Source: Dictyostelium discoideum
Taxonomy: Eukaryota
Direction of reading: 5' to 3'
Length of the DNA: 64,000 bases
Assembly (NCBI GenBank): GCA_000004695.1
Contig: CM000151.3
Span: forward strand, 2,432,001-2,496,000
Shown here piece after piece: positions 3,520-64,000 of the stretch. Under the pieces are notes generated by a model that ran no database searches, was not told where the DNA came from, and saw only the letters and a list, made by a program, of their open reading frames with translations. The translations under genes and the position numbers were made by a program. Numbering within the stretch: position 1 is the stretch's first letter; each line of letters starts with the position of its first letter.

Positions 3520-5553
3520 GTGAAAATGGTTTCAAATAATGATGATTTATTTTTTAAAATTTTTAGAAATCAATATATTAATAGAGAAATATTTAATAAA
3601 GTTAAAGAATATAATAAGAAATTAAAATATATCAGATATAATTATTATGATTTACCTTTAGAATTAATAATAAAAAAAAAAAATCAACAATTATTTGTAG
3701 AAAAATTAAAAGATTTTTTAAAACTTAAAAATGAAATAAAAGAGAATGGATTCACCAAAGAAAATCAATCAAATGTACATAAATATTTTATTAGATTTGA
3801 TGAAGGGCAAATATTACTTTTATTAGGATGGAAAGAATTGGATTTAGAATCATTTGATCTTTATTTAAGAATATTTGAAAATGAAATTAAAAATCGGAAT
3901 GAAATAACATTATATATTAACCCCAGTGGTTTTGAAATATGTGATGATAAATTCATACACTTTTTAGAAAAAAAAACATTTAGAAAATTAATTAAATTTG
4001 ATAATATCGTTGCCTTTGTATATAGAGGGGTTCATTCAATAAGATTATTAAATTATTTTATTGATAATTGTAAAGATTTAAATAGTGATGCTTTAAAAGA
4101 TTTAAATAATCTATATACTATATTTTCATTGTATTATTCAAATGGGAAAAATGAAGATTTAAAATACGAATATCTAAAGAGAATAAAAAGGTCAAATCAA
4201 TATTTTTCACGTTTAAATTCCTTTACAAGATTTATTGAAGATGCAATAAGAAATGAAGATTTAAAAATGTTAAAATCGCTACTTTCTCTTTTTAAATATG
4301 ATAAAAAACAAACCAATCCAACAGATCACCATCCAGATGATATAGTTACAATATTGGATATTCAAATTTCAATTAAAATATTAGAGCAATTAAAAATTAG
4401 TATTAATTCATTTAGAGGAAATGATAAATTATTACCATTTTATAAAATTTTAATAGAACGAGTATACTCTTCAAATAACTATTTCAAAAAAGAACAAAAA
4501 AAGAGACTTACAATAGCCTCAATAGAGTTTAGAAATTATGCAATTGACAAGATGTTAAATAATGGCTTCTATGCCAGTGATGAAAGAATGTTTGAAAATA
4601 TTTCATTCGCTTCAAATTGTATAAATGATGATGATCCAAACAATCTTTCAGAATATGATAAATTATTATTAAAACCAGAGTTTTTATCAGTACTTTTTTA
4701 TAAATGTAAAATAATGAATAGAGATTTAAATTTATTCAAATTATATCTGGTTAAATTTGGATTCAACTTTGAAAAATTATTAACTATAATAGAATTAAAT
4801 TATGAAAACATGGTATCTTATGTAATTTCAAACCTTTCTGAAATTGTTTTAAATCGATATTTAGATTTAATTGATTTTTCATTACCATCAAATGAAAGTG
4901 AAGGTTATGATTTTGTTTTTAATTTAGTTTTACCATTGTTAACTTTTGAAGAAACATTATCACTACACGAAAAAATTCAAAGCATCAAATTACCTTTCAA
5001 CTCTGAAAGAAGAAGAAAATTCATTTTAAAATCATATGAAATTGAATCAAAAATTGATGAAATTAATAGAAATAAAATCAATCAAAGATTTTTAAAAAAT
5101 TTTCTTAATAGAAAAGAAATTTTAATTGAAATTTGTAATAGCAAAACACTAACTGATTTAATATTTTGTAATTTAAAATCAGAGAATTTTAAAACAATTA
5201 AAAAAATTAAAAAACTTTGTTTTATCATTGATAAAACTTTATTAGCTAAATTTATTTGTTCAATTTATTGTGATTATTCAAAATCACTTTTATACTTAAT
5301 TCACATTCTAGATATTAATAATATTAATGATAATGATAATAATAATAATATAACAATTCCACAATCCATCTCCTCAAAATTTTCAAGTTTCGAAATGGCA
5401 ATGGGCCAAAGTATGCAGTATTTTTTATTAAATTTAAAATCAAGCTATGATGAAGAAAAAGATGGCCAGATGGTAACTGTAGACATTCAACCCCCAACAA
5501 AAAGTAATAATTATAATTTTATCAAAAAAGCACTATCATTTTTAAAAAAGTAA
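3520..5553 (+). CDS. Hypothetical protein, 677 aa, single exon, K/N/I-rich; no recognisable domain
   Basis: 2 kb uninterrupted ORF in a genome whose non-coding DNA is full of stops; ATG at 3520 after an A/T-rich leader; stop followed by an oligo(T)/oligo(A) terminator-like tract. Confidence 0.7.
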   Translation: MKMVSNNDDLFFKIFRNQYINREIFNKVKEYNKKLKYIRYNYYDLPLELIIKKKNQQLFVEKLKDFLKLKNEIKENGFTKENQSNVHKYFIRFDEGQILLLLGWKELDLESFDLYLRIFENEIKNRNEITLYINPSGFEICDDKFIHFLEKKTFRKLIKFDNIVAFVYRGVHSIRLLNYFIDNCKDLNSDALKDLNNLYTIFSLYYSNGKNEDLKYEYLKRIKRSNQYFSRLNSFTRFIEDAIRNEDLKMLKSLLSLFKYDKKQTNPTDHHPDDIVTILDIQISIKILEQLKISINSFRGNDKLLPFYKILIERVYSSNNYFKKEQKKRLTIASIEFRNYAIDKMLNNGFYASDERMFENISFASNCINDDDPNNLSEYDKLLLKPEFLSVLFYKCKIMNRDLNLFKLYLVKFGFNFEKLLTIIELNYENMVSYVISNLSEIVLNRYLDLIDFSLPSNESEGYDFVFNLVLPLLTFEETLSLHEKIQSIKLPFNSERRRKFILKSYEIESKIDEINRNKINQRFLKNFLNRKEILIEICNSKTLTDLIFCNLKSENFKTIKKIKKLCFIIDKTLLAKFICSIYCDYSKSLLYLIHILDINNINDNDNNNNITIPQSISSKFSSFEMAMGQSMQYFLLNLKSSYDEEKDGQMVTVDIQPPTKSNNYNFIKKALSFLKK

Positions 5554-13741: not shown

Positions 13742-14571
13742 TAATGATAATAATAATAATAATAATAATAAAAATAATAATACAATTAGACCATCTAGTA
13801 TCATTCATGATCGTTTTTCAACACTTCAAGATGCTTTTCATTTAGTACCACAAGAAATTGGTTTTATGATTGAAATTAAATATCCAAATTTAGCAATGCA
13901 AAATTTACGTAAGTTTAAAGCACCTGAAAGAAATGAATTTATTGATATAATTTTAAATGTATGTAATTTTTTAAATCTTAATCTCTCCCTTTAATTTATA
14001 TAAATTTAAAAAATTAATTATTTTTATTTTTATTATTTTTTTTTTTTTAATTTTAAAAATAGATTGTTTTTAATGAAACAAATGATAGAAGAATTGCATT
14101 TTTAACATTTGATCCAGATATCGCAATTTTATTAAGAACTAAACAATTTAGATATCCAGTTTTATTTTTAGTTTGTTGTGATACACCAACATTCTTTGAA
14201 GAATTCGACCCAGATGTAAATATTAATGATAATAGAGGTAATAGCATTACAAATGCAATATCTTTTGTTAAAACTGTAAATTTGGATGGTATTGTTTGTG
14301 ATAGTCAAACAATTTTAAATAATCATTCTTTTGTAAATTTAATTCATAGTGATAATTTATTATTATTCACTTATGGTAGTAAAAAGTAAGTTTTTTTATA
14401 TTATTTTATTTTAATTTTTTAATTTTTTAATTTATCTATAAAAAGATATTAACATTTATTTTTTTTTTTCCAGTGTTGATCCTGTTAATGTAAAAATTCA
14501 AAAAGAATTGGGTGTTGATGGAATCATAGCTGATAATATTACAAAGTTAAATAAAACCGTTATTGGTTTTT
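11859..14571 (+). CDS. Glycerophosphodiester phosphodiesterase with N-terminal CBM20 starch-binding-like domain (GPCPD1/GDE5-like); 3 exons 11859-13958, 14063-14385, 14474-14571
   Basis: CBM20-like block (LTRVTFKVETPIGYVRENNVLAIIGDSAEIGNWKSKDAPQMV…HLIWT) followed by the GDPD catalytic core (IGHRGNGKN…ENTILSFLTAAQFGAKMVEFDLQLTFDGVPVIFHDYEI). Donors GTATGT (13959) and GTAAGT (14386), acceptors AAATAG (14062) and T9CCAG (14473). Phases checked: exon 2 leaves AA, which joins T to give AAT. Stop TGA at 14569-14571. Long poly-N (AAT)n insert at 13680-13790. Confidence 0.8.
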
Positions 14572-52198: not shown

Positions 52199-53276
52199 TT
52201 AGTTTGTAGTAGTTGTAGTAGTTGTAGCAGTGGTTTGTATTTTATTAAAATTTAATCTAATATAATCTCTTGATAATAAATCTGCTTGTCTAATTGATTC
52301 AGGTACTCTGTATGGTGAAGTTAATTTAACAACCTTTAAAGCTGTCTCTAATGAAATTCGGTGTCCCACTGAAACATAAATTGGATTCTTACAGTTACTA
52401 TTACTTAATATTGCTGAACCCCAAATTCTACCACTTTCACCTTTTAATGGAACTTCTATATTTATATCTTCTCTTATATTATTATTATTGTTTTTAATTT
52501 TATTATTTTTATTATTTTTATTATTATTGGGTGAGGGTGTTGTTGTTACATCAGTGGTAGTTGTTGTTGATAAATATTTTAATCTTTCAGATTCAACTTT
52601 TGATTTTATTTCTTTTGTTGATAAACCATCAACATGAAAGAAAGTTTTACCAACACCGATTGTTGGAATATCAATTAAAACACCTAAATGAGAAGCTAAA
52701 CCGAATCCACGTGGATGTAGAATACCATTACCATCAATCATTATAATTTGAGGTAATAAATGGTTATAGGTTATTGATTGTTTTAATTTATTAATTAATT
52801 TAATTAAATGAGGAGTTTCTCTAAATGCTAAAAATCCTGGAATATATAATTCACTTAATTTAACAAATTCAATATCTTTATAAACTATTTTCAATGATGG
52901 ATATTCTATTACAATTAATGATGCACATGCATCAATATCATTATCTTTTACAAAACTAATATCAACACCACCAATATATTTCAATGTTGTATTCATTTTA
53001 TTTTCATCATCAATTTTAAAATTAAAATCATCTTTTTCAATTAAACTTTTCTTTAATTCATTTTGAATTCTAAAAAAAAAAAAAAATAAATAAATAAAAA
53101 ATATAAAAAAGAAAAAAAATGTTAGAAATTAAATTATTACTTTATTAAAAAAAAAAAAAAAAAAAAAGTTTACTTTACTCTATCCATTTATCTTGTTGTT
53201 CAATTTCTTCTTTTGTTAATTGTTTAGGTTGAGAGTTAGTTGTTGTTGTTGTGGTTATTGGTTGTTGTTCTGACAT
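52199..53276 (-). CDS. Endonuclease V (deoxyinosine 3' endonuclease) homologue; 2 exons approx. 53276-53196 and ~53067-52199
   Basis: Exon 2 IGGVDISF…[17 protein letters not shown]…[36 protein letters not shown]… carries the conserved EndoV motifs (GVDxSF, PYIPGxLAFRE, DGxGxxHPRxxGxAxHxG, PxIGxxK). Exon 1 [32 protein letters not shown], donor GTAAAG. A T/N-rich low-complexity insert ([29 protein letters not shown]) precedes the C-terminal [11 protein letters not shown]. Confidence 0.75.
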
Positions 53277-54834: not shown

Positions 54835-59344
<4,510 letters not shown>

Positions 59345-60014: not shown

Positions 60015-60088
60015 GCCTTAGTAGCTCAGTTGGTACGAGCGTGAGACTGAAGATCTTAAGGTCGCTGGTTCGATCCCGGCCTGAGGCA
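60015..60088 (+). tRNA. tRNA-Phe (anticodon GAA)
   Basis: GCCTTAG acceptor stem pairing with CTGAGGC (one G-U), discriminator A; D-arm GCTC-AGTTGGTAC-GAGC; anticodon arm TGAGA-CTGAAGA-TCTTA with GAA at positions 34-36; T-arm GCTGG-TTCGATC-CCGGC. No intron and no encoded CCA. Confidence 0.9.
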
Positions 60089-60118
60089 AATTTTTACACA
60101 CAAAAATCCTTTGATCGC

Positions 60119-60131
60119 AAGTTCGATCTCT
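60119..60131 (+). promoter_or_regulatory. Extra B box (exB) downstream of the tRNA gene
   Basis: AAGTTCGATCTC, ~30 bp downstream of the tRNA 3' end, resembles the internal B box GGTTCGATCC. Downstream extra B boxes are a known feature of Dictyostelium tRNA genes. Confidence 0.55.
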
Positions 60132-61059
60132 GCTTTAATTTTTTTTTTTTTTTTTGATATAAATAAACTATTGTAGTATACAATTAGTACTTTATTTATT
60201 TATTTTAGGTTTTTTAGTTTTTGTGAATTTAAAATGGTATGTTATTTTAGATTAGGTAATTAATAATTAATTGGTGGTGTAATTGTTGGAATTGGTTTCA
60301 GCATTGGTTTGTGTTTATGCTCCATTCTTTTTTAAATTTTTTGATGGTTTCGGGCCATTGGGTTTCTTTTTGAGTTTTTGTGAGGTTGTTTTTAATTGAG
60401 TATTGGTTAAAGTTTGATAATGTTCTGGAATATTCCAATCTTATTAGCTTGTGCCATTTTGATTTTAATATATCATAATCTAGTGTTGTGTTGTTTATTT
60501 GGTTGTTCCAATTGTCAATTGATTGAGTTATATTGATGTCAAATAATGATTTGCATAACCATATCCATATTTGGTGAATAACTAATGAGATTATGTTCCA
60601 ATATGCATGTGTTCTGACTAGATCAAGATTTGTGTTTATATAATTCCAGTTGAACCTGTATTTTTTATATTGTGCGTTTTCTGCAAAATGAAAATTAATA
60701 TTGATAGTTGGATCTGGTTTAAATGCTTTGTTGTTTGTTTGTGGTTTATAAATGAGTGTGTATAATTTTGTTGTTTGGTTTTTTGTTAGTGACCAGTTTT
60801 TGTTTCCATTGCAATTTTTATATATAAAATATTTTAATTTGTCGTGGTTTATGAAGTTGATTGTGTGCTGACAATTGAAAAACAAATGACCATAGGGATC
60901 ATTATTCATTTCATTGTTGCAAATGGAGCAAACTTTGTTGTGTAGATGATTAATCGGAAGACATCTAGCATGGAATCTTTGCATTGTATCACGGCCTTTT
61001 GGATCTTTTAATTTTTGAATTTTGACAAATAGTTGGTCGTATGTGTATTTCCATAATAG

Positions 61060-62500
61060 TTATATTGATTGTTGGTGCGAAGTAAGAAGTAGATCTGAAT
61101 ATTTCTTTCCTATATAGTCTTTTGATTTACATTGGTGATTGTTGAGTATTGTCGAGTAGATTTCTTTGAGTGTTGGTGGTAGTGAAATATTATTTGTGGT
61201 TAATGTTTGAGTGGTTTGGTTTTTTATTAATATTGGTTGTAGGGTTTGAATTTTATCTTTTAGATATCTAATTTGAGTTGCATAGTTTTCCCATTCTTTT
61301 TTGATTTTTATAAGGAATGGAGAAGAGATTGACTTGTTGATGATTTGATCCATCCAACTTATCATGTATATTGAATTGTTTGCAGATTTATGCATTTGTA
61401 AAAATATGTTGTATATCCAAATCTTTTGAGCAGCTTGTCGTAATTGTATATTCCACATACCCCAACCACCTTCTTTTAATAGTTTTAATGATCTATCATA
61501 ACACATCAAAGGTATTTTTGCACGTGAATGGATGGTTGATGTGTTGTTTTCAATGGAATTGGTATTGAGAGTTGGTGATTCAGAATTTGCGGGAGAATTC
61601 ATAAACCATGAGATTAATTTATTAATTTGAATTTCTTCATCTTTTGTAAATTCTTCAAGGTATGATAAATATGTTATTGGTGATAGTGAGTAAGTGTTTA
61701 TGATGGTTGTTTTTGTTTTTAATGTTGTGCCACTAGTTTTCCATAGTACTAATGATTTGATCAGTGTTTTCATTGTTTCTGGTAATTTCCTATGTAAACC
61801 ATTATGATTAAAGAAATAGCCAAGAACTCTTTCTGATTGATCTTTTTTGGTTATTGGTATTCTTTTTGATTGTGGAATGTTGTTTATTAAGTGTTTATCA
61901 GTGATTTTGTGGGGGTTGATTTCTATTATTGCACTTTTGTCAAAATTTAATGATGATGATGTTGAAGCGCAGAAATTATCGAAATGTTTGATTGATTGTT
62001 GTTGTTGTTCGTAGTTGATGTTGTATGTTGTAGAGTCTTCTGCAAATTGGGTAAATTTGATTTTAATTTGTGGATTGGGTGAAATTGGTAATCCAATTAT
62101 TGTATTGTCTGCATTTATTGTTCTTGCTAATATTTCAATTACAATTACAAATAAAGTGGCTGAGATTGGGTCACCTTGTTTTACACAACTTTTAATATCG
62201 AATTTTCTAGTCGTTTTACCATTAATTGAAATTTTTGCTTGTGAGTCAGATAAAAGCTTGTGGATTATATTTATTAATTTTATTGGTATACCAATATGAA
62301 TTAATGTTCTTTTAATACTATCGTGAGAATCAAATGCTTTAAAGAAGTCAAATAGTGTGATGTTACCAGGGAGGTTTTTAGATTTGAGGTAGTTGATTAA
62401 TTCATTGATGTTGATGATGTTGTCTATGATAAATCTGTAGGGTACGAAACCAGTTTGGTTGATGTTGACGATGAAGGGAAGTATTCTCAGAAGGTAATTT
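61060..62500 (-). CDS. Reverse-transcriptase domain segment of the retrotransposon ORF2
   Basis: Continuous minus-strand frame containing RT motifs 1-7 (…QTGFVPYRF…FDFFKAFDSHD…GDPISATLF…FAEDSTTY…). Confidence 0.6.
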
Positions 62501-63549
62501 TTGCATCTTTTGATCTTTGTTTAGTATTGCTGATAGATACTTATAGGTATTTCTCCTTTATTTGTTTGTGTGGTTTTGATGTAATTTGTTTTTGTTACAT
62601 ATAATATTGTATTCAGCGATGCATTGTTTTTCAAGATGTTTAAATTTTGCTGCTTTTTCTAATAGTATTTGTTTTGCACGTTGAGTTTGTTTGTCTTTGT
62701 TATATTGATAGTTTTTTAGAGTTTTAATAATTTTTGATTTTACTTTTGACCAATTTGTAAATTGATTGATTGATGTGTTATTGTGATTAGTTATTAAATG
62801 ATTGATAATATTGATTGCTTCATGGTCATTTGCAGTACCAGGTGATAATATCCATCTTTTCTTATGTTTATTTATTTGAAAAGGTGAAGAAATTGTTGTT
62901 GATACTGGATTATGATCTGATAATGAAGATGGAATTTGGTGGACTTGTGTATAAATTTTCAGGGTCTATTCTATTGTAATGAGTATATATTCTATCTAAT
63001 CTGTTGCCATGTGTATGAGTTGGAGTGTTTTTAAATTCACCTTGATCAATTAGATGGTGTTGGTATGTGTAGGATTGGATAATATCGTCTAATAGTGAAT
63101 TGTCGTTGTGGATACAGTTGAAATCGCCTGCGATAATAGATACATGTTGGGATTGGTTTGGTATTGGGTTTGTTGAGTGGTTGTGGAGAAGTGTTTGTAG
63201 TGAAGTTGTTATGAATTCTTTTTGATGGTATCATTTGATGCTGGTGCATAAATTCCAAGAATACCAATTGGTAATTGATTTGGAAATATAACGTCTGCTA
63301 AAATAGCTCTACCATCAATTGTTGATATGTGTTTGAGTTTGAGTGTGTTTGGGTTATGCTTTAATGTTTTTGTCTTAGTAAACAAAGGAAAACAATTAAT
63401 ATTATAAGAATGCTGTAAAGGTCAATCAGAACTAACTTTATTTTTTTTTAGTTTTTACAATTTTCGACCGAGAAGTTTCGAATGAAAACTCTAAATTATA
63501 TAAAACTAAATAAATTATTATTTTAATTATTATTGTTTAATTGTAATCA

Positions 63550-63882
63550 TTACTGTAACAACTGGTGGTCGGTATCATCAGTGTTAATTTTTCCTAATGA
63601 TTTCTTTATTGTGTTGGTTATTGCTGCTGAAGTTATTGGTGTTGTAATGTTGGGTGATGATGGTGGTGTCGTATGATTATTCAATTGTTGTTGAGATTGT
63701 TGATTTATTAATTGAATGTGTTGTTGAAGAAGTTGATTTTGTTTATCTATTACCTGCTGCTGTTCCCTTATCTGACGTTGCTGTTCATTGAATGTTGATA
63801 CCTGTGGTTGTTGCTGTTGTTCCTCATTATCCTGTTGTTGCAATTCATCATTATCAATATCTTCGTTATTATTAGTTGACAT
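63550..63882 (-). CDS. Retrotransposon ORF1-like protein (Q-rich, 110 aa)
   Basis: MSTNNNEDIDNDELQQQDNEEQQQQPQVSTFNEQQRQIREQQQVIDKQNQLLQQHIQLINQQSQQQ…, sitting 5' of the APE/RT ORF on the same strand. Confidence 0.45.
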   Translation of the reverse strand: MSTNNNEDIDNDELQQQDNEEQQQQPQVSTFNEQQRQIREQQQVIDKQNQLLQQHIQLINQQSQQQLNNHTTPPSSPNITTPITSAAITNTIKKSLGKINTDDTDHQLLQ

Positions 63883-64000
63883 TCTCTTAAAATAAATTAT
63901 TTAATAAAATTTAATTATTTATTTATTCTATTATTAAAGTAAAATGATTAATTATTTAAGAAATAAATGTACACAAAATTAATTAATGACCGTAGCCCTA

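Follow-up and report, generated by a model that had tools for sequence, protein, structure and literature searches.

How did a TRE3-type retrotransposon come to lie just downstream of a tRNA-Phe gene with its poly(A) end directed toward that gene, and is this the normal arrangement for its family? The locus is at the right end of the window, the 64,000-nt stretch of Dictyostelium discoideum AX4 chromosome 2 that was analyzed. We estimate a probability of about 80% that the element is a dead, 5'-truncated copy of TRE3-B, placed on the strand opposite to the tRNA gene by one event of target-primed reverse transcription (TPRT) and decayed afterward. The features of the locus are:

60015-60088, plus strand: tRNA-Phe(GAA) gene, called by ARAGORN
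60022-60033: A box of the tRNA-Phe(GAA) gene
60067-60077: internal B box of the tRNA-Phe(GAA) gene, GGTTCGATCCC
60091-60095, plus strand: TTTTT, probable Pol III terminator of the tRNA-Phe gene, read from the sequence
60119-60130, plus strand: predicted external B box (exB), AAGTTCGATCTC, with its core GTTCGATCT at 60121-60129 and ATCgcaa before the core
60131-60139: tRNA-proximal copy of the target-site duplication (TSD), TGCTTTAAT, abutting the oligo(A) tail; exact 9-nt repeat at both junctions
60140-60155, minus strand: oligo(A) tail of 16-17 nt, with T60139 common to tail and TSD
60156-60297, minus strand: TRE3-B 3' untranslated region, 97% nucleotide identity to the copies in loci L002-L008
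60298-61059, minus strand: C-terminal part of ORF2, 95% identical to protein P0006
60871-60930, minus strand: CCHC zinc-finger motif CSICNNEMNNDPYGHLFFNC, CX2CX11HX4C
61060-62493, minus strand: reverse-transcriptase (RT) remnant, 95% identical to AX4 TRE3-B gene models
∼61897-62466, minus strand: Pfam RVT_1 match (E = 2.7e-14), with the FAEDS motif at 62032-62046
62493-62496, minus strand: internal deletion junction, ∼469 nt lost, from BLASTN against L001 and pairwise alignment to the composite TRE3-B
62497-63358, minus strand: APE-RT linker and APE endonuclease remnant, with GDFN at 63114-63137 and SDHNP at 62906-62920
63357-63365: distal copy of the TSD, TGCTTTAAT, whose first 2 nt (TG) also fit the element consensus (junction microhomology)

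An earlier note on this DNA had started from a clean tRNA-Phe gene followed 30 bp later by a B-box-like sequence, and both observations hold. The orthologue of the tRNA gene in a second assembly (L005) scored 62.5 bits against the Rfam tRNA model, and a second tRNA-Phe(GAA) gene, at locus L006, is identical to it in sequence. Runs of T bring about termination by Pol III. The tRNA-Phe gene is probably unaffected by the insertion, since its own TTTTT terminator sits upstream of the insertion site. The exB core fits the D. discoideum B-box consensus GTTCRAnYC (PMC3159450) at eight of nine positions, and the predicted box shows the further marks of a Dictyostelium exB, being on the same strand as the tRNA gene and tens of bp downstream of it. 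Its core is at +33 from tRNA-Phe; the motif was found at +28 to +34 in 9 of the 13 tRNA 3' flanks examined. The internal B box (both strands) aside, it is the sole consensus match with one mismatch or fewer in the flanks.

At the tRNA-proximal end, alignment to other TRE3-B copies reached the tail (reference position 4811 corresponds to 60139 of the window), and the 17 T at 60139-60155 agree with the oligo(A) end of a minus-strand element that had been noticed 8 bp past the exB. At the other end, the copy is truncated at 63356-63358, inside the APE domain and at about element position 1590; full-length homology ends at …CATAACCC. The six bases past this point (CATTAA) resemble the element consensus, with an indel, so the precise position of the 5' boundary carries an uncertainty of up to 8 nt. 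The copy thus comprises ∼3.2 kb of ∼5.3 kb and has no ORF1, no 5' UTR and none of the first ∼60 ORF2 codons. The absence of ORF1 and the 5' UTR is no argument against TRE3-B membership because it is expected in a truncated copy. The earlier note had looked for a TSD beyond 64000; the duplication exists, but it lies inside the window. A repeat of at least 9 nt was seen in 0.6% of random window site pairs with generous slack (P about 0.006 for the TSD), and the 9 bp found here compare with 7-12 bp in other TRE3-B copies. The reconstructed empty site is predicted to read …GTTCGATCTCTGCTTTAATGTTTTTGTC…, …GATCTCTGCTTTAATGTTTTTG…, …AAGTTCGATCTCTGCTTTAATGTTTTTGTCTTAG…, with a single TGCTTTAAT. No empty-site allele that would prove the duplication was found; the second assembly (L005) also carries the insertion.

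The proposal of a TRE3-type non-LTR retrotransposon beside a tRNA gene with an exB was borne out, as ORF2 matches TRE3-B, and the subfamily, left open in the earlier note, can now be given. ORF2 is 92% identical over 180 aa to DDB_G0291686, which is 'TRE3-B ORF2' in Table 2 of PMC12405889; the call of TRE3-B is taken from this one paper's table of dictyBase product names and not from an alignment to the deposited consensus. At the protein level the copy is 95% identical to gene models of AX4, among them P0002, a 90%-cluster mate of DDB_G0291686. The composite full-length element measured ∼5.3 kb vs. 5279 bp for the TRE3-B consensus, a subfamily reported with 43 copies at 34-188 bp downstream of tRNA genes (PMC5006619). 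AAC27746.1, in the cluster of P0006, carries the annotation 'similar to HC domain of Tdd-3 and DRE'. Pfam Exo_endo_phos (E = 9e-7; C-terminal part only, profile positions 141-225), RVT_1 and the CX2CX11HX4C motif follow one another in the APE, RT, CCHC order that had been read in ORF2, all of them as remnants. A Pfam scan (E ≤ 0.1) of the translated pieces detected no integrase or RNase H.

Domains, location and sequence identity fit neither TRE5 nor DGLT-A, the two other families that the earlier note had named. TRE5 was rejected because the element follows the tRNA 3' end instead of preceding a tRNA gene by ∼50 bp, and its sequence family is TRE3-B; DGLT-A and Skipper-2, LTR retrotransposons that occur close to tRNA genes, were rejected in view of the APE and RT domains, the oligo(A) end and the 92-95% identity to TRE3-B ORF2. 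A BLASTN search with 60139-64000 gave no match elsewhere in the window, and neither BLASTN nor TBLASTX turned up a further copy of the element in the other 60 kb. We concluded that the element belongs to a known family.

The distribution of ORF2 over at least three frames had been taken as the mark of an old, inactive copy. This is in line with our result that ORF2 runs over three frames and carries deletions and a stop codon. Relative to the composite reference, 1-nt and 2-nt deletions near 63209 and 62956 shift the frame, and the ∼469-nt deletion removed the N-terminal RT motifs and shifted the frame again. An in-frame stop is present at 61060-61062. The C terminus of ORF2 ends early (…NTNQC*), adjoining an 8-nt insertion near 60306.

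The insertion point had been thought unusually close to the tRNA gene. Counted from the tRNA-Phe 3' end, the TSD occupies +43 to +51, and the oligo(A) begins at a distance of 51 bp; about 50 bp is a normal distance for TRE3-B. The other tRNA-adjacent TRE3-B copies (n = 8) lie 39-73 bp from their tRNA, and the other tRNA-Phe gene, L006, likewise has an insertion directly at its exB. Published distances are 34-188 bp for TRE3-B and 14-228 bp for TRE3-A, and no range exceeds 305 bp (PMC5006619, Table 1).

The orientation is another matter. The earlier note had taken a 3' end facing the tRNA gene as the TRE3 geometry, and the comparison copies show the reverse. We examined comparison loci by way of the gene models of another D. 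discoideum assembly, GCA_054883475.1. All eight tRNA-adjacent TRE3-B copies lie on the strand of the tRNA, with the 5' end toward the tRNA 3' end, and two other TRE3-like copies are likewise on the tRNA's strand with the 5' end proximal. A review describes TRE3 elements and their tRNA genes as lying 'in the same transcription orientation' (PMC5911963). In the window, the tRNA is on the plus strand and the element on the minus strand with the poly(A) proximal; the copy is inverted at a canonical position. The inverse orientation characterizes the insertion event and has no bearing on the sequence family. With 0 of 8 inverted in one assembly, the inverted fraction could still reach ∼30% (upper 95% bound), and inverted copies may already have been described in the primary TRE3 literature (Szafranski 1999; Winckler 2005; Glöckner 2001). 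Read backwards, GGTTCGATCC is one mismatch away from the B-box consensus. Reversed TFIIIC binding to a near-palindromic B box is no more than speculation as a cause of the inversion and was rejected, since it would put the insertion on the upstream side of the reversed box, a geometry that matches none of those known.

The same arrangement was found in the second assembly (L005), with 99.87% identity over 10 kb, and it is therefore no assembly artifact. A kinase ORF neighbors the locus. Just beyond 64000, on the strand of the element, there is a strongly structured stretch of ∼125 nt (L005 9760-9887; folding z = -7.0), which has no Rfam match. ARAGORN called no other tRNA in the flanks of the element within the window, a search of the orthologous 6.7 kb with Rfam (E ≤ 1) gave no tRNA or relic to the right of the element, and 63357-64000 contains no B-box match with one mismatch or fewer. 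A hidden minus-strand tRNA or relic to the right, which would restore the canonical geometry, was rejected, as these searches found neither a tRNA nor a B box there.

The inversion would disappear if TRE3 normally faced the tRNA with its 3' end and the copy continued through an ORF1 at 63550-63882 and past 64000. The element does lie downstream of the tRNA, and a minus-strand ORF does lie upstream of the APE remnant. Such an uninterrupted canonical element is nevertheless hardly credible: homology stops at 63356-63358, where the 9-bp TSD closes the element, the eight comparison copies are all oppositely oriented, and the full-length TRE3-B ORF1 (MADDHSTELQ…, P0043, P0011) has no similarity to the 110-aa ORF (best BLASTP E = 0.49). 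The ORF belongs to a small family of four proteins, and TRE sequence is attached to none of these four models; at the ORF's own locus, fusion with the relic occurs only in the model ACTFIT_002843. We also rejected the ORF as the ORF1 of another TRE, as only these four related proteins were found and they have no TRE context. The claim that the element has an ORF1 was dropped, since the copy ends inside APE and the ORF is outside the TSD; the Q-rich 110-aa ORF is flanking host DNA. It is also very improbable that tRNA-Phe was not the target, that the landmark was another Pol III-type gene on the minus strand 5' of the element, and that the nearness of the tRNA is coincidental. The structured stretch, upstream of the 5' end on the element's strand, would give the canonical orientation; it ends, however, ∼620 bp from the 5' junction vs. 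39-73 bp in the other copies and a published maximum of 305 bp, and it lacks both an Rfam match and a nearby B box. For an estimate of chance landing, we used a D. discoideum genome size of ∼34 Mb. With 418 tRNA genes (PMC5633606), landing by chance in the ∼40-bp TRE3 zone just after an exB has a probability of ∼1e-3, a rough figure.

A canonical insertion that was later flipped by a local inversion, or a tRNA-Phe gene moved beside the element by rearrangement, would be compatible with strict orientation specificity. Laboratory strains of D. discoideum carry large rearrangements, and the locus is part of the chromosome 2 duplication. We consider such an origin improbable all the same. The TSD copies are direct repeats abutting the oligo(A) and the 5' end, and an inversion would have needed breakpoints exactly at both element ends; the junctions have no inverted repeats or extra sequence; and the reconstructed empty site puts the insertion 1-2 bp past the exB core, as in L006. 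The rival to be taken more seriously, though still unlikely, is that TRE3-B orientation is not strictly fixed, with inverted copies a regular minority and position and strand independent of one another. The comparison covers eight copies, the orientation specificity of TRE3 is given in one review sentence (PMC5911963), and strict orientation was shown by experiment only for TRE5-A. Against this, with random orientation the binomial probability of eight of eight copies pointing one way would be 0.004, which argues at least for a strong orientation bias.

For the insertion on the opposite strand that we favor, the following course can be proposed. The Pol III complex assembled on the tRNA-Phe(GAA) gene would have attracted a TRE3-B ribonucleoprotein, with TFIIIC at the internal B box, or at the exB, as the likeliest tether. 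It should be noted that TFIIIC tethering was studied by experiment only for TRE5-A (PMC5006619). The APE would have nicked at TGCTTTAAT^G, a point 51 bp from the tRNA 3' end and 1-2 bp beyond the core of the exB, and the poly(A) tail would have been primed on the freed 3' end in the manner of TPRT. Reverse transcription would have stopped early, inside the APE-coding region, and a second-strand nick 9 bp away would have given rise to the TGCTTTAAT duplication. We infer a strand-choice error in this event: the first nick, usually made on the antisense strand, would have fallen on the sense strand of the tRNA gene, which would explain the inverse orientation with the poly(A) toward the tRNA. The 469-nt deletion, the frameshifts and the stop codon would have accumulated later.

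Compared with known systems, the copy shares with TRE3-B the 92-95% amino-acid identity to ORF2 models, the APE-RT-CCHC order, the oligo(A), the 9-bp TSD, the site 51 bp past the tRNA just after an exB and a 5' truncation typical of the class; it differs in being reversed relative to the tRNA, in its missing ORF1 and in its many defects. Both the architecture and the target zone, downstream of tRNA genes, are shared by TRE3-A (Tdd-3), the commonest TRE3 subfamily, but the GenBank entry of the cluster mate AAC27746.1 calls it only 'similar to' Tdd-3. Another TRE3-like family, the P0051 type, occurs at the same loci and is only ∼41% identical to the element. [quoted passage not shown] Mammalian 5'-truncated LINE-1 copies likewise show TPRT, poly(A), a short TSD, 5' truncation and 5'-junction microhomology (here TG), but LINE-1 does not target tRNA genes and its orientation to neighboring genes is essentially free.

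The copy is already annotated, as DDB_G0273263 and DDB_G0273901 (P0001), two identical gene models that reflect the position of the locus within the AX4 chromosome 2 duplication. This model splices the relic across its frameshifts and treats it as a protein-coding gene. In ACTFIT_002843 the relic is fused to an unrelated upstream ORF in one gene model. A text search of papers and supplements for the DDB_G identifiers found no mention of them. The value of the finding is mostly one of annotation hygiene, as two public models present a relic as protein-coding. For the biology of the family, we lean toward the view that TRE3-B can insert by TPRT at its canonical site just past an exB while nicking the 'wrong' strand, in which case position and orientation are separable. 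If this is true, tethering to the Pol III complex would set where a copy inserts and the strand choice of the endonuclease would set which way it points, in contrast to TRE5-A, for which a strict coupling of orientation has been reported. If inverted copies are rare but real, this copy would be a natural example of position uncoupled from strand choice.

The only tRNA gene called by ARAGORN in the 64-kb window is tRNA-Phe(GAA), and a second tRNA-Phe(GAA) gene, found in the D. discoideum comparison locus L006 (assembly GCA_054883475.1), is identical to it in sequence. The features of the window locus are as follows:

60015-60088, plus strand: tRNA-Phe(GAA)
60022-60033, plus strand: A box
60067-60077, plus strand: internal B box, GGTTCGATCCC
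60091-60095, plus strand: T5 run 3' of the gene
60119-60130, plus strand: external B box (exB), AAGTTCGATCTC, 30 bases 3' of the gene
60131-60139: tRNA-side copy of the target-site duplication TGCTTTAAT, adjoining the oligo(A)
60871-60930, minus strand: CX2CX11HX4C motif
63357-63365: far copy of TGCTTTAAT, adjoining the truncated 5' end, its first two bases common to the element
63550-63882, minus strand: 110-aa Q-rich ORF with an ATG start, outside the duplication

The exB core GTTCGATCT fits the D. discoideum B-box consensus GTTCRAnYC (as quoted in PMC3159450) at 8 of 9 positions, and is the only match with ≤1 mismatch in the flanks of the element, the internal B box aside. The motif was present at +28 to +34 in 9 of 13 collected tRNA 3' flanks (at +33 in the window). 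These three observations uphold the exB reading of 60119-60130. The ARAGORN call and the consensus match agree with the earlier note, which had described a tRNA-Phe gene with a B-box-like sequence 30 bp further on.

The element lies on the minus strand, and its oligo(A) tail is the run of 17 Ts (60139-60155) that begins 8 bases past exB. Six-frame translation and Pfam analysis revealed, in minus-strand order, remnants of the C-terminal half of Exo_endo_phos (APE), RVT_1, and the CX2CX11HX4C motif. In a protein search several D. discoideum AX4 gene models were 95% identical to the element; DDB_G0273263 is this very copy with 'introns' set over its frameshifts, and an identical model, DDB_G0273901, also exists for this region of AX4 chromosome 2. 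The copy is assigned to TRE3-B, because DDB_G0291686, with the product name 'TRE3-B ORF2' (PMC12405889 Table 2), clusters at 90% with the best protein matches and is 92% identical to the window ORF2, the composite full-length element from loci L006 and L001 is ∼5.3 kb long (TRE3-B consensus, 5279 bp; PMC5006619 Table 1), and a further TRE3-like family (P0051 type), found in the same loci, is only ∼41% identical.

Scored against this composite, the window copy is 97.4% identical at aligned positions. It has lost 1 nt and 2 nt near 63209 and 62956 and, at 62493-62496, a 469-nt segment with the N-terminal RT motifs; several other small indels are present, as are a stop codon in frame at 61060-61062 and an 8-nt insertion near 60306, beside the early end of the ORF2 reading frame. 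The frameshifts, the large deletion and the stop bear out the view that this is an old, inactivated copy.

Full-length relatives read …GVIIINHNPNTLKLKHISTIDGRAIL…, the window …TKTLKHNPNTLKLKH…; in DNA alignments the L001 and L006 copies match the window up to …CATAACCC (window 63356-63358). The 5' truncation point lies at approximately element position 1590, within the APE-coding region, and ORF1 and the 5' UTR are missing. Because six more bases (CATTAA) are consensus-like if an indel is permitted, the 5' boundary can be placed only to within 8 nt. The 9-nt repeat TGCTTTAAT is found in direct orientation exactly at both ends of the element; when 200,000 random site pairs were drawn from the window and generous slack in position was allowed, 0.6% had a repeat of at least 9 nt, mostly in low-complexity runs. 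Duplications in other TRE3-B copies are 7-12 bp long. The empty site before insertion can be reconstructed from the sequence as …GTTCGATCTC-TGCTTTAAT-GTTTTTGTC….

The 110-aa ORF was rejected as ORF1 of the element: it lies beyond the duplication and did not resemble ORF1 in TRE3-B models that are close to full length (lowest E = 0.49). The claim that the element has kept ORF1 was thus not confirmed, and probably reflects the same joining of ORF and relic as in the automatic annotation ACTFIT_002843. No Pfam domain above threshold was found in the ORF, and the protein search turned up no AX4 protein with its sequence. It has four relatives: ACTFIT_010762, a 95% identical D. discoideum paralogue elsewhere in the genome; DDB_G0271474 and ACTFIT_002117, short models that share only its N-terminus (first ∼40 residues); and a 64% identical D. 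cf. discoideum protein. Four relatives do not amount to the copy number of a repeat.

To compare arrangements, tRNA genes and TRE3-B sequence were mapped in eight loci reached through GCA_054883475.1 gene models.

Distance from tRNA gene to TRE3-B 5' junction in the comparison loci
L001, tRNA-Thr: ∼58-71 bp; 5' end intact, 3' end cut off at 14066
L002, tRNA-Thr: 49 bp; full 5' end
L003, tRNA-Val(TAC): 39 bp; 5'-truncated
L003, tRNA-Val(AAC): 64 bp; 5'-truncated
L004, tRNA-Gln: 73 bp; full 5' end
L006, tRNA-Phe: 57 bp; full 5' end
L006, tRNA-Asp: 49 bp; 5'-truncated
L007, tRNA-Thr: ∼55 bp; 5'-truncated

All eight TRE3-B copies lie on the strand of the tRNA, with the 5' end at the tRNA 3' flank and poly(A) pointing away (P = 0.004 if orientation were random), and the four 5'-truncated copies are oriented like the intact ones. 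Two TRE3-like copies of other subfamilies are arranged alike (L006 minus strand at tRNA-Asp; L002 at the first tRNA-Thr). The window copy, with its poly(A) towards the tRNA, is therefore an inverted exception, and not, as had been proposed, an example of the known TRE3 geometry. Its position (+43 to +51 from tRNA-Phe) is canonical. The insertion lies 1-2 bp past the exB core, and that at L006 tRNA-Phe is equally near, its duplication TCTAATTGGTAA beginning inside the exB box; given this and the published distances (TRE3-B, 34-188 bp; TRE3-A, 14-228 bp; PMC5006619 Table 1), the earlier description of an unusually close insertion does not hold.

Other structures were seen in the comparison loci. 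At L001 14067-14115, TRE3-B stops at its position ∼4250, and a G-rich repeat GGGGGGAGGAGACAGGGGACAGGGGACAGGGGACAGGGGGGGAG follows where the 3' end with poly(A) would lie. L003 9591-12268 and L008 1157-11262 are tandem TRE3 arrays, each on one strand, in keeping with a published account in which TRE-TRE tandems arise when the same tRNA gene is targeted repeatedly. The tRNA-adjoining copy of the L003 array is 5'-truncated, and beyond it comes a copy whose 5' end is intact; no tRNA gene was detected within L008.

An assembly artefact is an unlikely source of the inversion, because the orthologous locus L005 of the second assembly has the same arrangement (99.87% identity over 10 kb). Inversion after insertion would need breakpoints exactly at both ends, since the two copies of the duplication stand in direct orientation, one of them next to the oligo(A). 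Neither a tRNA gene or relic on the minus strand nor a B-box match was found on the 5' side of the element; the next tRNA gene, tRNA-Glu(TTC), lies ∼2.2 kb past the window end and has a TRE5-like neighbour of its own. A strongly structured stretch of ∼125 nt just past 64000, on the strand of the element, is an unlikely landmark for it: it ends ∼620 bp from the 5' junction, far beyond any TRE3 distance.

This stretch (L005 9760-9887, plus strand; its last 11 nt are window 63990-64000, minus strand) forms a closed multi-stem fold with the outer stem CCCTATCG/CGATAGGG and a hairpin of 10 bp capped by a UUCG loop (MFE -46.3 kcal/mol, z = -7.0; 0 of 200 shuffles fold as well). It had no Rfam match at E ≤ 1, and may be an unannotated ncRNA gene. 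At L005 7669-8462 (∼1.4-2.2 kb past the window end), a non-LTR fragment starts ∼58 bp upstream of tRNA-Glu(TTC) and points away from it; the fragment is 5'-truncated and has a zinc-finger C-terminus and a long poly(A). Such an upstream, outward-pointing position is the textbook arrangement for TRE5. Within 4 kb there are thus two tRNA genes, each with a TRE of its own. On the other side, an uninterrupted 1375-aa ORF (55217-59344, plus strand) ends 670 bp upstream of tRNA-Phe; it has protein kinase and Ribonuc_2-5A (KEN) domains, an IRE1-type architecture, and its poly-N and poly-Q tracts are very long. Its orthologue was called as 1454 aa in the other assembly. A 265-aa ORF (52199-52996, minus strand) that spans a complete Endonuclease V domain (Pfam E = 1e-58) is probably one exon of its gene, as the orthologue is annotated at 322 aa in the other assembly.

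The window copy most likely arose by a single event of target-primed reverse transcription at the Pol III complex of tRNA-Phe. The tRNA-sense strand would have been nicked first, at TGCTTTAAT^G; reverse transcription would have ended early, the 5' end being joined via 2-nt microhomology, and the copy would have decayed after insertion. What the element is, its ends, its duplication, its decay and its orientation are shown here, while we infer tethering to TFIIIC and a 'wrong-strand' nick; PMC5006619 reports no experiments on TRE3 targeting. The element family, its mode of targeting (tRNA/exB) and the copy itself were known and annotated before, and the inverted orientation, set against a comparison sample of eight copies, is a modest curiosity.
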